Below, one piece after another: positions 1,036 through 6,255 of a DNA stretch of 26,767 nt. The number at the start of each line of letters is the position of its first letter. The stretch's first letter is position 1. The translations under genes were made by a program, and so were the position numbers. This stretch comes from Candidatus Firestoneibacteriota bacterium (lineage in GTDB: Bacteria > Oederibacteriota > D2-FULL-39-29 > JBDRBU01), in assembly GCA_043822305.1 (NCBI GenBank), contig JBDRBU010000022.1:1-26767 (forward strand). The letters are read 5' to 3'. A model generated the notes under the pieces. It saw only the letters and a list, made by a program, of their open reading frames with translations. It was not told the origin of the DNA and made no database searches.

Positions 1036-2931
1036 ATGAATATTCACGCACTTCCATCAATAATTGCAGCAATAACCAATTTAACATTAGGAATCTTTGT
1101 TTATCTTAGAGGTAAAGGGAAAAAAATAAACTTACTGTTTGGCCTAATGAGTCTTGCCTATGCCTGGTGGAATTTTGGTGCTTTTATGCTTTACATTGCT
1201 CCAAATAAAGAATCTGTTTTATCTTTGTTCAGACCTACAAGTAGCGGCATGTGGTTTATTCCCCCCTTAACTTTTCACTTTATAATTCATCTGGGGAAAG
1301 ATAAAAGTAAAATATCTAAAATAATTTTAAGCATTTCATATCTTCTGGGTGTTATTTCACTTATTTCAAGCTGGGTTGTTAAAACTGAATTCATATTTTT
1401 TGAATATGGTAAATATCTTCCTAAGGCAAGTCTTCCTTTTGCTTTAATAAATATAAATATTGGAGTCGTAATTTATGGATTATATCTTTTAACTAAAAGA
1501 TATAAAAAATTAACATCGGCTATTGAACGTGTTCAGATAAAATATTTTTTCCTCGGAATAACAATTCTTTTTTTATGCAGTTTAACAGATATTCTTACTG
1601 GCTATAATATAAAAGTATATTCATTCGGTCAATTAGGAACTTTATTTTACTTAATGTGTGTGAGTTATTCTATTATAAGACATCGTTTATTTGATATAGA
1701 TATGGTTATTAATAAAATTATACTTTTTGTTTTATTTACTGTATTTATTGTTATATTTCATATTGGACTTATTAAGATTACATCTTATCTAGTAACTCCT
1801 CCATCGGCTAATTTTTGTTCTATTATTCTTCTTGTGTTTATTTTCTTCTTTACACCATTAAGATTCAAATTAAGCGACCTCATCGACCGTGTAGTTTACC
1901 ATGGCCGATACGATTATCAAAATATACTCCGTAATACATCTAAAGCATTAGTCAGCCTACTTAACTTGGAAGAATTATTAAATTATCTCACGACGACTAT
2001 GGCTAATGTCGTCGGGGTAAGAAAGGTATGTGTTTTATTAGAAAAGATACCGGGTAATTTTTCCATTCAGTCATCTTACGGCCTAGAAAATGAGCTAGTA
2101 AAAGATTATTCAATAAAGGTAAAAAACGGTATAGTTGGCTGGATGAAGAAAAAAAAGGATGTGTTTGTTAAAGAAGAGCAGGAAAGAGAACTTTCTCCAG
2201 AAGAATTTAAAGCAATATATGGAGACATAGAAAAGATAGGAGCGGATATAAGTATTCCTTTATTTTATAAAGAAAGATTGCTGGGTATTATTACCTTGGA
2301 TTCAAAAATTTCAGGCAAGATTTATAATCCGGCAGATATAGATATTCTTAACACCATCGCTTCTCAAACGGCTATTGCTTTAGAAAATGCCAGGATTTAT
2401 GATGAAGCTATAACTGATGGTTCAAGCGGGTTATATAATCATAAATATTTTATCTTTCGATTAAATAAAGAAGTAGAAAGAGCAAGAAGATATAACTTAC
2501 CACTTTCACTTCTTATGATGGATATAGACCATTTTAAGAATGTAAATGATAAATTTGGACATCTAGTGGGATCTATGGTTGTAAGAAAGATGGGTAAAAT
2601 CATTAAAGCACTCGTAAAGGAAGTAGATATTCCATGTCAGTATGGTGGAGAAGAATTTACAATTTTACTTCCACATACTGAGTTAGAAGAGGCTAAAGCA
2701 ACTGCCTATAAACTTAATAAAACAATACAGGATACAGAGTTTTCAGAAGAAAAGTCTATTTCTGTAAAAATAACTGTATCTATAGGAGTAAGTAGTTTAA
2801 GCGAAGACAATAAAGACAAAAATATCCCACAGGGACTTCCTTTGATCGCCCCTTTAGATTTTCTAAAGTTAGCTGATACGGCTTTATATAAAGCAAAAGA
2901 AAAAGGAAGAAATAAAGTTGAGGTAATGTAA
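1036..2931 (+). CDS. Membrane sensor (HisKA-7TM-like)-GAF-GGDEF protein with Hypr-type Ser substitution; candidate 3',3'-cGAMP synthase or degenerate diguanylate cyclase
   Basis: Multi-TM N-terminus, GAF (IPLFYKERLLGIITL...IALENAR), and GGDEF motifs DIDHFKNVND and GGEEF. Has GHLVGS instead of GHxxGD, QYGG instead of RYGG, and KEVD instead of RxxD. Confidence 0.9.
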   Translation: MNIHALPSIIAAITNLTLGIFVYLRGKGKKINLLFGLMSLAYAWWNFGAFMLYIAPNKESVLSLFRPTSSGMWFIPPLTFHFIIHLGKDKSKISKIILSISYLLGVISLISSWVVKTEFIFFEYGKYLPKASLPFALININIGVVIYGLYLLTKRYKKLTSAIERVQIKYFFLGITILFLCSLTDILTGYNIKVYSFGQLGTLFYLMCVSYSIIRHRLFDIDMVINKIILFVLFTVFIVIFHIGLIKITSYLVTPPSANFCSIILLVFIFFFTPLRFKLSDLIDRVVYHGRYDYQNILRNTSKALVSLLNLEELLNYLTTTMANVVGVRKVCVLLEKIPGNFSIQSSYGLENELVKDYSIKVKNGIVGWMKKKKDVFVKEEQERELSPEEFKAIYGDIEKIGADISIPLFYKERLLGIITLDSKISGKIYNPADIDILNTIASQTAIALENARIYDEAITDGSSGLYNHKYFIFRLNKEVERARRYNLPLSLLMMDIDHFKNVNDKFGHLVGSMVVRKMGKIIKALVKEVDIPCQYGGEEFTILLPHTELEEAKATAYKLNKTIQDTEFSEEKSISVKITVSIGVSSLSEDNKDKNIPQGLPLIAPLDFLKLADTALYKAKEKGRNKVEVM

Positions 2932-2933
2932 TT

Positions 2934-4820
2934 ATGAATATTTATTTATCCTCTTCTATAATTGGGGCCATAGTAAACTTAGGCTTAAGCATTTTTGTAT
3001 ATCTTAAAGGTAAGGGAAAAAAGATAAATATTGCATTTGCCTTGATGAGTCTTAGCGTTTGCATCTGGAATATTACAACTATTGGTTTCGTCCTTATAAA
3101 AGGGGAAAACACCCTTGAGTCTTTTCATCGTCTTATTGTACTTGGAATATATTTAATTCCTGCATTTACTTTTCATTTTCTGACTATCTTATCAAAAGCA
3201 AAAGGGAAAGTCGTTTCTTTATTATTAACACTTTCTTATATATTAAGTACAGGTTTATGGATTTCTAGTTTGTTAATAAAAACAGAATTTAAATATATAG
3301 ATGAAACAAAAAGATGGATGCCACTTCCAAATATTGTAAGTTTCTTTTTTATTGTAATTTTTATATTTTATATTAGCTATGGTCTTTATTTATTATTTAA
3401 AAGATATAAAGAAACCTCTTCACCTTTAGAAAAAACTCAAATAAGATATTTCCTTCTGGGGATCTCTTTTTTCTTTCTCGTTAGTTTAACTTCATTCCCT
3501 CATGTTTTTTGGAAGTTTAAAATCCCACCCTTAAGTAGTCTTGGCTGTGTTTTTTATAGTATTTGTGTATCTTATTCACTTGTCCGACATCGTTTATTTG
3601 ACATAGATGTCGTCATTAATAAAATCATTCTTTTTATTATTTTATGTGGTTCAATTATTATGTTTTATACTATATTTAACAAACTTACTTCTTCTATAAT
3701 AAATCCTACTTTGGCTAATTTTTCTTCTGCTTGTCTAATTATCTTTTTTTTATTTTTTACTCCTTTAAGATTTTGGTTAGGTAATGTTATCGACCGTGTC
3801 GTCTACCGCAATAAATACGATTATCAAAATATACTCCGTAATACATCTAAAACATTAGTCACCATGCTTGATTCAGAGGAATTATTAAATTATCTCACGA
3901 CCACTGTGGCTAATGTCGTCGGGGTAAGAAAGGTATGTGTTTTATTAGAAAAAACCCCTGGTAATTTTTCTATTCATTCATCATTTGGCCTAGAAAAAGA
4001 TATAGTAAAAAATTATTCAATAGAAGTAAAAAACGGTATAGTTGGCTGGATGAAGAAAAAAAAGGATGTGTTTGTTAAAGAAGAGCAGGAAAGAGATCTT
4101 CCTGAGGAAGAATTTAAAACAATATATAAAGATTTAGAAAAGATAGGAGCAAATGTAAGCATTCCTTTATTTTATAAAGAAAGATTGCTGGGTATTGCTA
4201 CCTTAGATTCAAAAATTTCAGGCAAGATTTATAATCCGGTAGATATAGATATTCTTAACACCATTGCCTCTCAAACTACTATTGCTTTAGAAAATGCCCG
4301 GCTTTATAATGAATCTATAACTGATGGTTTAACCGGATTACACAATCACAAATATTTTATTTTTAGATTAAATGAAGAAGTAGAAAGAGCAAGAAGATAT
4401 AAATTACCACTTTCACTTCTTATGATAGATGTAGACCATTTCAAGAATGTAAACGATAAATTTGGCCATCTGGCCGGAGATATGGTTTTAAGAAAGATGG
4501 GTAAAATTATTAAAGAATCTACAAGAACAATAGATATTCCATCTCGGTATGGTGGAGAAGAATTTGCAATTTTACTTCTACATGCCAAGTTAGAAGGGGC
4601 TAAAGTAATGGCCTATAAACTCAATAAGATAATAGCGGCTACAGAGTTTCTAATAGAAGAAAAGTCTATTCCTATAAAAATAACTGTATCTATAGGGATA
4701 AATAGTTTAAGCGAACATAAAAAGGACAGGGAGACCACATTAGATTTTCTAAAGTTAGCTGATATCGCTTTATATAAAGCAAAAGAAAACGGAAGAAACA
4801 GAGTAGAAACAACTATTTAA
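2934..4820 (+). CDS. Membrane sensor (HisKA-7TM-like)-GAF-GGDEF diguanylate cyclase, canonical
   Basis: DGLTGLHN, DVDHFKNVND, GHLAGD, RTID I-site (RxxD), RYGGEEF and ADIALYKAKENGRN all intact. Confidence 0.92.
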   Translation: MNIYLSSSIIGAIVNLGLSIFVYLKGKGKKINIAFALMSLSVCIWNITTIGFVLIKGENTLESFHRLIVLGIYLIPAFTFHFLTILSKAKGKVVSLLLTLSYILSTGLWISSLLIKTEFKYIDETKRWMPLPNIVSFFFIVIFIFYISYGLYLLFKRYKETSSPLEKTQIRYFLLGISFFFLVSLTSFPHVFWKFKIPPLSSLGCVFYSICVSYSLVRHRLFDIDVVINKIILFIILCGSIIMFYTIFNKLTSSIINPTLANFSSACLIIFFLFFTPLRFWLGNVIDRVVYRNKYDYQNILRNTSKTLVTMLDSEELLNYLTTTVANVVGVRKVCVLLEKTPGNFSIHSSFGLEKDIVKNYSIEVKNGIVGWMKKKKDVFVKEEQERDLPEEEFKTIYKDLEKIGANVSIPLFYKERLLGIATLDSKISGKIYNPVDIDILNTIASQTTIALENARLYNESITDGLTGLHNHKYFIFRLNEEVERARRYKLPLSLLMIDVDHFKNVNDKFGHLAGDMVLRKMGKIIKESTRTIDIPSRYGGEEFAILLLHAKLEGAKVMAYKLNKIIAATEFLIEEKSIPIKITVSIGINSLSEHKKDRETTLDFLKLADIALYKAKENGRNRVETTI

Positions 4821-4937: not shown

Positions 4938-5720
4938 ATGCGTTTTCTTATCACTTTAATTTTAATTCTTAGTACTACTCTGGTGGTTTTTGCTCAAGTA
5001 GATCTAGATATAGGAAAAAAGATTCAAAAGTATAAAGAAGATATAGAAAAGTTAAAAAAAGAGTTAGAAAATTCTGATCCTATTGTTCGAGCAGATGCAG
5101 CCTTAGCCTTAGGTGTTATAAAGAATCCAGAAGTTATTCCTTTTGTTAGAAAATTATTAAAAGATGTTGATGAAAATGTTAGATCTTCTACCATAAACTC
5201 CCTTTGTATATTGCAGGATAAAGGCTCAAGGAACGAAATCATTAAATTAGGACTATATGATAAATTTGGAATAGTTAGAGCATCAGCTGCCAGTGGGTTA
5301 GGTACTTTGCAAGATAAAATAGCCATTCCTGCTCTCAAAACTATAGCAAAACATGATAAAGAATCTATGGTTCGAATAACAGCGGCCATATCACTTAAAA
5401 GTTTTGGTGAAGATTGGGCCATTTCAATAATAAGAGAAACTATTAAAGATAGGAATTTAGATGTCCGTATCTATGCAGCCGCTATGTTATCTTCGCTGGG
5501 AGATTTATCTTGTGTTCCTATTGTTAGGCAAGGATTATCTTCTAAAGATAAAACAATACGAGGTGCATGTGTTAATGTCTTAGGACAAGTAGGTGGTGAG
5601 GATGCTATTTTGGATTTAAAATACATCTCTAAAAATGATGAAGAAGAAATTATTAGAGACACAGCCAGAAATAGCATAAGAGCCATAGAAGCAAGAATGA
5701 AGAAGAAAACTAAAGAGTAA
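4938..5720 (+). CDS. Exported HEAT-repeat (PBS-lyase-like) protein
   Basis: Signal peptide (MRFLITL...VFA-Q); repeats VRADAALALG, VRASAASGLG, VRITAAISL, VRIYAAAML; GGGGG RBS. Confidence 0.85.
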   Translation: MRFLITLILILSTTLVVFAQVDLDIGKKIQKYKEDIEKLKKELENSDPIVRADAALALGVIKNPEVIPFVRKLLKDVDENVRSSTINSLCILQDKGSRNEIIKLGLYDKFGIVRASAASGLGTLQDKIAIPALKTIAKHDKESMVRITAAISLKSFGEDWAISIIRETIKDRNLDVRIYAAAMLSSLGDLSCVPIVRQGLSSKDKTIRGACVNVLGQVGGEDAILDLKYISKNDEEEIIRDTARNSIRAIEARMKKKTKE

Positions 5721-5757: not shown

Positions 5758-5811
5758 TAAAAATTGGAGGGCTTTCTCACTGAATACTTACCAGAAAAGG
5801 AGGGTTATTTT

Positions 5812-6255
5812 ATGGCTAAATATCATATAGGAGAAATTTTAATACGGGAGGGATTAATTACATCGGAACAATTAAAGAATGCTATTGAAGAACAGAGAAG
5901 GACCGGACAAAGATTGGGTCGTGTCTTGATAGACAAAGGTTATGTTAAAGAAGATGCTTTACTAAAGGTTCTGGGCACTCAGTTAGATTCTATGATCATA
6001 AATACAGGTGCAACCCACAAGAAGGTAAATAAATACCTGGCTTTAGTTTTAGGGATTCAAAGTTTAAATATCATTTTACTTATAGGGATGTTTTTATTTA
6101 TTAGGAAATATTTAACCGGTGGATTAACTTTCTTAGTAGATGATGAGATGGTTTCATATTTAAGTTTGTTTATAGTAGGATGTATTGTTTTATTTATACT
6201 TTTTTCGTTTATTATACAACAAATCTACAGATTAAACAATAAAGAAGAATTATAG
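5812..6255 (+). CDS. Stand-alone MshEN-domain protein with two C-terminal TM helices (putative cyclic-dinucleotide receptor)
   Basis: Tandem MshEN motifs HIGEILIREGLITSEQLKNAIEEQ and RLGRVLIDKGYVKEDALLKVLGTQ. Start moved from 5764 to ATG 5812 because of AGGAGG at 5798-5803. Confidence 0.85.
   Translation: MAKYHIGEILIREGLITSEQLKNAIEEQRRTGQRLGRVLIDKGYVKEDALLKVLGTQLDSMIINTGATHKKVNKYLALVLGIQSLNIILLIGMFLFIRKYLTGGLTFLVDDEMVSYLSLFIVGCIVLFILFSFIIQQIYRLNNKEEL

Follow-up and report, generated by a model that had tools for sequence, protein, structure and literature searches.

Among the known systems closest to the gene presented here are GGDEF enzymes of the Hypr type, whose founding member is the GMP-AMP cyclase GacA of Geobacter (GSU1658/Gmet_1914; structure 6D9M). 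According to the available text of Hallberg 2019 (PMC6456294), a base-reading Asp drives the GTP specificity of canonical diguanylate cyclases, a cross-dimer Arg favours guanine, and Ser348, which stands at the position of this Asp in GacA, needs the shorter Asp of the GGDEF motif, as captured in the "Goldilocks" model. In the same account, the D374E variant of GacA, which joins Ser to GGEEF, was inactive and mutants of WspR showed the same trend. The four Asp-to-Ser mutants that lost activity all carried GGEEF, and the Asp-to-Ser mutant of GSU3350, which has GGDEF and not GGEEF, stayed a pure diguanylate cyclase; natural enzymes with Ser or Thr are said there to carry GGDE[F/Y] exclusively. 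A second Hypr enzyme of Geobacter, GSU1937, also has a central Asp (Ser with GGDDF; PMC8835794). In Myxococcus xanthus, MxGacB (MXAN_2643) is described, in the available text of bioRxiv 10.1101/600031, as a Hypr cyclase that is activated by cyclic AMP (cAMP) and inhibited by cyclic di-GMP (c-di-GMP). Here, we describe two adjoining genes, paralog 1 and paralog 2, in a window of 26,767 nt (the whole stretch of DNA that was analysed, contig JBDRBU010000022.1 of a Candidatus Firestoneibacteriota bacterium). Paralog 1 has the serine of GacA, but pairs it with GGEEF. The reading we favour, to which its sequence gives about an even chance, is that the GGDEF domain of paralog 1 would be catalytically silent or strongly impaired, and that the protein would have been retained for sensing or as a regulatory subunit, rather than acting as a synthase of cGAMP (3',3'-cyclic GMP-AMP).

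In the products of both genes, which are 63% identical overall (398/636), a membrane region of multiple helices precedes the GAF and GGDEF domains. The Pfam matches of paralog 1 are HisKA_7TM (1.8e-11), GAF_2 (5.6e-09), and GGDEF (PF00990; 4.6e-37, 127.7 bits), and those of paralog 2 are GAF_2 (4.4e-08) and GGDEF (1.5e-44, 152.1 bits). The open reading frame of paralog 1 translates to ...MMDIDHFKNVNDKFGHLVGSMVV...KEVDIPCQYGGEEF, and that of paralog 2 to ...MIDVDHFKNVNDKFGHLAGDMVL...RTIDIPSRYGGEEF. The features of the pair are as follows, with the basis of each call in brackets:

1036..2931, + strand: paralog 1, 631 aa, with a seven-transmembrane (7TM) sensor region, GAF, and GGDEF (open reading frame, Pfam, AlphaFold2)
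1036..1890, + strand: membrane sensor half of paralog 1, codons 1-285 (synonymous divergence, dS; identity to paralog 2)
1908..2931, + strand: cytoplasmic half of paralog 1 (linker, GAF, GGDEF), homogenised with paralog 2 at 3815-4820 (nucleotide identity, dS)
2407..2916, + strand: GGDEF domain of paralog 1, residues 458-627 (PF00990; genome search match)
2416..2427, + strand: wide-turn DGSS of paralog 1, residues 461-464, replacing DxLT (open reading frame, alignment)
2440..2442, + strand: His469 of paralog 1, where GacA has Tyr304 and canonical cyclases have the cross-dimer Arg (alignment to 6d9m)
2521..2538, + strand: DIDHFK metal and phosphate site of paralog 1, kept (columns invariant in the alignment)
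2572..2574, + strand: Ser513 of paralog 1, codon TCT, at the position of PleD D344 and GacA S348 (codon, alignment)
2617..2628, + strand: KEVD of paralog 1, replacing the RxxD inhibitory site, with Lys528 (open reading frame, alignment)
2638..2640, + strand: Gln535 of paralog 1, codon CAG, replacing the Arg of RYGGEEF (open reading frame, codon)
2644..2658, + strand: GGEEF motif of paralog 1, with central Glu539 (open reading frame, codon)
2809..2841, + strand: loop insertion specific to paralog 1, approximately residues 592-602 (gap in paralog 2 and homologues; predicted local distance difference test score, pLDDT, <50)
2920..2923, + strand: GAGG, likely the ribosome-binding site of paralog 2 within the 3' end of paralog 1, 10 nt before the start of paralog 2 (sequence)
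2934..4820, + strand: paralog 2, 628 aa, a canonical-looking GAF-GGDEF cyclase with DGLT, Asp516, RTID, and RYGGEEF (open reading frame, Pfam)
4479..4481, + strand: Asp516 of paralog 2, codon GAT (codon)

Re-reading of the frames and codons bore out the residues and positions that the first-pass annotation had given for Ser513, Asp516, DGSS/DGLT, and QYGG/RYGG. The serine codon lies two base changes away from the aspartate codon of paralog 2 (TCT versus GAT), and alignment to PleD and 6d9m confirmed that the exchange falls on the base-reading position, with the metal-binding residues and GGEEF retained. Paralog 1 also has DGSS where paralog 2 has DGLT, in the hinge motif of GGDEF domains (DxLT; PMC8041772), KEVD in place of RTID at the RxxD inhibitory site (I-site) five residues ahead of the signature motif, and QYGGEEF in place of RYGGEEF. 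As such, it fails the full set of canonical class I diguanylate cyclases (DxLT, Asp344, RxxD, and RxGG(D/E)EF), of which paralog 2 has all four. With Arg replaced by Lys528, paralog 1 has no intact RxxD I-site for c-di-GMP binding of the kind found in PopA or CdgI. Its AlphaFold2 model has a mean pLDDT of 87.8, and drops below 50 only in the loop at residues 592-602.

These residues are unusual among homologues. The best 120 proteins from a search of 5.8 billion included 117 that fit the motif pattern, in which the base-reading residue was Asp in 113, Asn in 3, and Ser in 1, which is paralog 1 alone. Ser513 is beyond chance variation, since it is the sole Ser among these 117 and, as set out below, the sole match of Ser or Thr with GGEEF in the 99 genomes of its phylum. 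In an alignment with 116 homologues, Arg is conserved at 100% at both position 528 and position 535, while Asp at 513, Thr at 464, and Leu at 516 each reach 97%; the Leu and Thr columns of DxLT are conserved at 73% and 97%, respectively. Conservation reaches at least 95% in 35 columns, of which 6 are changed in paralog 1 and 2 in paralog 2, with one change common to both. The non-conservative replacement of several signature residues (6 of 35 conserved columns) is a trait that paralog 1 shares with the degenerate, non-catalytic GGDEF class of receptors or adaptors.

Two other observations concern the same motifs. In paralog 2, residues 546-551 (4569-4586) read LLLHA in place of LLPHT, by which both the Pro and the Thr of the LP.T turn after GGEEF are lost, each of which is 91% conserved in the 116 homologues. 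Elsewhere in the genome, a 387-aa GGDEF protein (G000:C12:13647-14126, - strand, L002) has Asn at the base-reading position (GHQTGN), while its RYGGEEF, RxxD, and DELT are intact.

The history of the pair can be read from its two halves. The membrane halves (codons 1-285) have a dS of 1.34, a ratio of nonsynonymous to synonymous divergence (dN/dS) of 0.35, and 46% amino acid identity, close to the identity of paralog 1 to the outside homologue P0003 (43%; paralog 2 is 38% identical to P0003). P0003, the outside protein closest to the membrane half of paralog 1, itself has Asp, Arg, and RxxD. In contrast, the cytoplasmic halves (codons 286-631) have a dS of only 0.29, 84-90% DNA identity, and 75 amino acid differences; nucleotide identity rises from 71% over 1645-1900 to as much as 90% from approximately 1900 onwards (1908-2207 versus 3815-4114). 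Because dS differs in this way between the halves, the pair is a mosaic of an old tandem duplication and a recent gene conversion over the cytoplasmic part of approximately 1 kb, and the changes specific to paralog 1 are younger than this homogenisation. The earlier suggestion of a recent local duplication was therefore not supported, as the cytoplasmic halves alone are young. The accompanying suggestion that the serine arose independently of GacA stood up, as the GGDEF domain of paralog 1 is 70% identical to that of paralog 2, compared with 36-38% to Ser-type GGDEFs from Desulfuromonadales and Myxococcales metagenome-assembled genomes (MAGs) and 29% to one Ser-type GGDEF of its own phylum.

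Near-identical repeats in a metagenome-assembled genome of 125 contigs, 84-90% identical in DNA over the cytoplasmic halves, could also give rise to a chimera or error, in which case the Ser variant would be an assembly artefact. We regard this as scarcely credible. The differences are many, in frame, and spread over the whole tract (75 amino acids in codons 286-631), the Ser codon is two bases off, and collapsed repeats would erase differences, not create them.

Constraint differs along the cytoplasmic half. The linker and GAF domain have a dN/dS of 0.33. Within the GGDEF domain, the value is 0.26 at the start and 0.31 at the end, with 0.81 over codons 508-592 in between. Windows of 40 codons gave 0.73-1.10 for codons 506-585 and 0.15-0.71 for codons 286-505. 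This suggests relaxed constraint in the catalytic core of the pair, with a dN/dS of approximately 1. In comparisons with all nine outgroups, unique replacements in the GGDEF domain were more numerous in paralog 1 (10-16) than in paralog 2 (5-10), and the GAF domain had no such asymmetry; p was <0.05 with three of the nine outgroups, and the nine tests are non-independent. Positive selection in the core was considered and rejected, since dN/dS is close to 1 and not above it, and the tests were non-significant.

A core that evolves at this rate and has lost functional residues could belong to a duplicate without any remaining role, at an early stage of decay. No orthologue with the changes of paralog 1 was found in the 5.8-billion-protein search, where the best outside homologue was 48% identical over residues 290-631 and had Asp; nor were orthologues of the pair found among 40 relatives (best 36-37% identity) or in a scan of genome contigs (best 35%), which speaks for this account. 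We nevertheless consider decay quite unlikely. The frame of 631 codons is intact, the membrane and GAF parts show a dN/dS of 0.33-0.35, and only 6 of the 35 ultra-conserved GGDEF columns are changed, compared with approximately one third expected without constraint, by a rough estimate from dS. In addition, the genes are separated by only 2 bases (the TAA stop of paralog 1 at 2929-2931, the ATG of paralog 2 at 2934), and paralog 2 is apparently translationally coupled to paralog 1, which is the first gene of the operon. The intact frame, the low dN/dS outside the core, and the confident fold suggest that the protein still works and that the gene is not dying.

What that protein does hinges on how far it resembles the Hypr enzymes. 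Paralog 1 shares with GacA its fold, a Ser that falls exactly on Ser348 within an identical GHLVGS context, and a non-Arg cross-dimer residue, His469 taking the place of the guanine-favouring Arg; its metal and phosphate residues are intact as well. The same Ser and a GAF-GGDEF output are found in MxGacB, going by the available text of bioRxiv 10.1101/600031, so Hypr enzymes with this architecture are known. All of this would fit a newborn Hypr-type cyclase that converts ATP and GTP to 3',3'-cGAMP, by itself or in mixed dimers with paralog 2, and hence two messengers per operon. We consider this highly unlikely. GacA is of the Rec-GGDEF type and has a central Asp in its GGDEF motif, RYGG, REVD, and DELT, where paralog 1 has GGEEF, QYGG, KEVD, and DGSS, and 6d9m matched paralog 1 (3.7e-31) no better than the canonical paralog 2 (2.5e-33). 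With Gln535, Lys528, and DGSS, paralog 1 has lost residues whose columns reach 97-100% conservation. His469 does not mark paralog 1, since paralog 2 also has His at this position, as do 51 of the 118 aligned family sequences (52 have Arg). MxGacB is described as a soluble protein with a working I-site, unlike paralog 1, which sits in the membrane and lacks the Arg of the I-site. Finally, the core has a dN/dS of approximately 1, and not above 1.

A further objection is the central Glu. Of the traits of Hypr enzymes, paralog 1 has the GGDEF fold and the Ser at the D344/S348 position, but its motif is GGEEF, without the central Asp (GGDE[F/Y] or GGDDF) of the characterised enzymes. In the available text of PMC6456294, Ser with GGEEF was inactive in every engineered case. 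Membership in the Hypr group was thus not supported. Natural genomes were scanned with DNA patterns for H..G, followed by Ser/Thr or Asp, 23 residues, and GGDEF, GGEEF, or GGEEY (GGDEY was left out of the counts), in 99 genomes of its own phylum and 401 genomes of the phylum of a Desulfuromonadales MAG, 500 in all. Within its own phylum, Asp with GGEEF gave 384 matches in 97 genomes, while a codon of the Ser/Thr class was found once with GGEEF (paralog 1 itself), never with GGEEY, and once with GGDEF. In the 401 genomes, Ser or Thr occurred with GGDEF in 119 genomes, 19 of which had two, for approximately 138 matches, and gave no match with either GGEEF or GGEEY. Together, approximately 139 domains with Ser/Thr and GGDEF stand against a single one with Ser/Thr and GGEE[F/Y], which is paralog 1.

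The single Ser-type GGDEF domain of its own phylum (GHNAGS...RIGGDEF) lies at G056:C6:149477-149575 (- strand; L035 and L128), in a genome that likewise has no match to the GEMM-I riboswitch family.

Paralog 1 is in effect a recent natural Asp-to-Ser variant of a GGEEF cyclase, and the inactive engineered Asp-to-Ser mutants are for this reason its closest model. The engineered GGEEF cyclases with Asp changed to Ser (WspR and others) and GacA D374E share with it the combination of Ser and GGEEF, of which paralog 1 resembles a natural version. Unlike them, it has 10-16 further replacements in the domain, some of which lie near the pocket (Val511, Val516, and Gln535); these could compensate or add damage.

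The same mutants bear on a different account, in which paralog 1 would be a weak diguanylate cyclase that is freed from product inhibition by the loss of RxxD, adding a second, differently sensed input of c-di-GMP. GGEEF, DIDHFK, Asn504, and the C-terminal KxxxR are kept, the Asp-to-Ser mutant of GSU3350 remained a pure diguanylate cyclase in the available text of PMC6456294, and an I-site mutant of GacB (R286A) escaped inhibition by cyclic dinucleotides according to that of bioRxiv 10.1101/600031, which is suggestive given the Arg-to-Lys change of RxxD in paralog 1. However, GSU3350 is a GGDEF enzyme and the four GGEEF mutants of the same study were inactive, the Asp that paralog 1 has replaced is reported there to drive specificity for GTP, and the invariant Arg535 and the hinge motif have been changed too. 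On balance, we find this account unlikely.

The genome was also searched for other parts of a cGAMP pathway, which are supportive rather than defining traits of Hypr systems. No match to the GEMM-I riboswitch (RF01051) was found among 95 scored candidates in this 96.8%-complete genome, while the positive control, genome G099, which holds two Ser-type GGDEFs, gave two. GEMM-II likewise had no match in the genome, and a scan of the window against Rfam yielded no family at gathering score. None of the four HD-GYP proteins of the genome has the cGAMP-type Rxx(Q/N) motif; placed by alignment to PmGH, their motifs are all canonical Rxx(K/R), reading RIYK or RPYR. As the GEMM-I control works and the HD-GYP proteins are canonical, the idea that one operon makes two messengers found no backing. 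Overall, the residue change, the kept metal-binding residues and GGEEF, and the independent origin that the first-pass annotation had put forward hold, whereas the Hypr membership, the recent duplication, and the two messengers are not supported. Its own caveat, that paralog 1 may be a weakened or dead enzyme, is now the better supported part, but is not proven, given the natural clade described below.

Downstream of paralog 2, two genes are of relevance:

4938-5720, + strand: HEAT-repeat protein, downstream of paralog 2
5764..6255, + strand: small membrane protein with an MshEN/GSPII-type N-terminal domain, two genes downstream (matches to sequences in the Protein Data Bank)

The N-terminal region of the latter, of approximately 60 residues, matched the c-di-GMP-binding domains of PilF (GSPII; 6f8l, 1.5e-18) and of the MshE N terminus (5htl, 7.4e-10); the Pfam family T2SSE_N did not match this product, for which Pfam gave only a sub-threshold DUF4388. 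The presence of this MshEN-type domain suggests that the cyclase pair probably feeds a local c-di-GMP receptor. Its two half-sites differ: the first 24-residue motif begins with His-Ile-Gly where MshE has Arg-Leu-Gly, and the second begins with Arg-Leu-Gly. These unlike half-sites, of which motif I carries His and motif II Arg, are a point for cGAMP. In the most specific form of that idea, paralog 1 would be a cGAMP synthase at its birth: the Asp would have changed to Ser after homogenisation, Gln535 and its neighbours would have re-tuned the pocket, ATP would be accepted, and the cGAMP, made by paralog 1 by itself or by a Ser/Asp mixed dimer with paralog 2, would be read by the receptor with unlike half-sites. 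We see only a slight chance of this. Were it true, the Goldilocks rule would have in paralog 1 a second natural exception, of independent origin, in an operon that makes two messengers.

We return to the impaired sensor paralog as the reading we favour, and the sequences themselves show the history from which it starts. An old tandem duplication left two 7TM-GAF-GGDEF genes whose membrane sensor halves differ, and the approximately 1 kb for the linker, GAF, and GGDEF has recently been homogenised between them. Thereafter, paralog 1 swapped the guanine-reading Asp, the Arg before GGEEF, the Arg of RxxD, and the Leu-Thr of DxLT, while keeping its metal and phosphate residues and GGEEF. By analogy with the Goldilocks model, a nucleotide would be unable to span a pocket with Ser and a central Glu, so that homodimers of paralog 1 would make little or no cyclic dinucleotide. 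Paralog 1 would instead form mixed dimers with paralog 2, by which a second membrane signal could damp or gate the c-di-GMP output of paralog 2; the MshEN-type receptor of the downstream gene probably reads this output. We infer such dimers because the GAF and linker windows are 80-93% identical between the paralogs, the genes appear coupled, and there is a precedent in E. coli, for which the available text of PMC5635695 describes heteromeric GGDEF-GGDEF contacts, as well as a degenerate protein, CdgI, whose N-terminal domain also occurs in active cyclases. CdgI resembles paralog 1 in its non-canonical GGDEF domain, the sensor architecture of active cyclases, and its proposed heteromeric action. 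In detail, the two are each other's reverse: in that description, the GGDEF motif of CdgI is degenerate and its c-di-GMP-binding I-site intact, while in paralog 1 GGEEF is intact and the I-site lost.

If this reading is right, the loss of catalysis by a GGDEF paralog, in itself an ordinary event, has been caught unusually early, with changes that are datable by comparison with an intact twin at a dS of just 0.29. The pair would then put to a clean test, in nature, both the Goldilocks rule, by which Ser requires GGDEF, and the way in which sensor paralogs become regulators. On its sequence, we would class paralog 1 as a GGDEF paralog that is variant or degenerating, and whose history is unusually clear.

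Several findings weigh against this interpretation. Paralog 1 keeps Asp496, Asp498, Lys501, the base-contacting Asn504, Glu539, Glu540, Lys621, and Arg625. At the looser threshold of 90% conservation or more, departures are about equal (six in paralog 1, five in paralog 2). The higher dN/dS of the core falls short of significance in Fisher tests (p 0.12-0.21), which leave a value of 1 unrejected. The mixed dimer is itself deduced from sequence and precedent. Moreover, the Arg before xGGDEF is absent in 9 of the approximately 138 Ser/Thr-type domains, which have His, Ala, or Lys instead, so Gln535 alone is no proof of a dead enzyme; it may be tolerated once the base-reading Asp is gone.

Further counterevidence comes from a natural clade. 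A search with residues 494-546 of paralog 1 returned 111 further proteins, two of which were Ser-type: P0292, with Ser and GGDEY, and P0285, with Ser and RYGGEEY. P0285 heads a cluster of 25 members (AEP11819.1), which includes Chloracidobacterium thermophilum, C. aggregatum, and related strains, and Ser with GGEEY (GHLVGS...RYGGEEY) was found in all 15 members listed. When P0285 was searched against 1.84 billion representatives at 50% identity, Ser was paired with a central Glu in 10 of the best 150 matches (GGEEF in 6, GGEEY in 4) and with Asp in 2. Counting the query, 51 sequences had a readable motif and no more than 450 residues; of these, 11 were Ser/Glu, 2 Ser/Asp, and 35 Asp/Glu. In a Pfam scan, P0285 and seven Ser/Glu representatives were FHA-GGDEF proteins without exception (8/8). 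By these motifs, Ser with GGEE[F/Y] is rare, yet is kept by one diversified clade, and the published exclusivity is not universal. Since the FHA-GGDEF clade retains the combination, selection can maintain Ser together with a central Glu, and the clade is also a point for a Hypr-type activity of paralog 1.

These are the only natural domains found with the same Ser and central Glu as paralog 1. They differ from it in their FHA input, in the Arg before xGGEE[F/Y], and in mostly keeping RxxD and DxLT; the Ser/Glu state extends across many 50%-identity clusters in the clade, and is a singleton in paralog 1. The available text of PMC6456294 reports that Cabther_A1065 of C. thermophilum, which has Arg at the cross-dimer position and was tested in Hallberg 2016, makes mostly c-di-GMP. 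The protein of the P0285 cluster also has Arg at this position, and may be the same protein as Cabther_A1065. Ser/Thr-type enzymes are stated to carry GGDE[F/Y] exclusively; the clade, which goes against this, should be of interest to specialists in cyclic dinucleotide signalling in its own right. Its Ser/Glu proteins are P0285, P0352-P0366, P0369-P0372, P0379, P0440, P0462, P0489, and P0513.

The Ser/Thr-type domains without Arg form subfamilies with VHYGGDEF, VAYGGDEF, or TKYGGDEF in the phylum of the Desulfuromonadales MAG, at nine loci (L119-L127, in genomes G264, G233, G387, G229, G260, G489, G363, G393, and G340). The same domains also lack Asn335, as Val replaces this base-contacting Asn (FKxVVD). 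From the variability of the Arg in Ser-type domains, we infer that it (PleD Arg366) may be coupled to the base-reading Asp; the DgcR paper does not mention a residue equivalent to PleD Arg366.

Further downstream in the window, on the same strand, are genes for a protein with HEAT and prenyltransferase-like regions, a TPR protein, ExbB, and two ExbD proteins. Elsewhere in the genome, two tandem genes (G000:C123:42131-46679, + strand, L006-L009) encode proteins of approximately 1035 and 1050 aa, each with two divergent GGDEF/palm-like domains, the first of which carries GGDDF (HFGGDDF or HLGGDDF). The one of these that was scanned has Big_1 Ig-like repeats, followed by GGDEF/palm-like matches and a weak match to Cas10 palm2.

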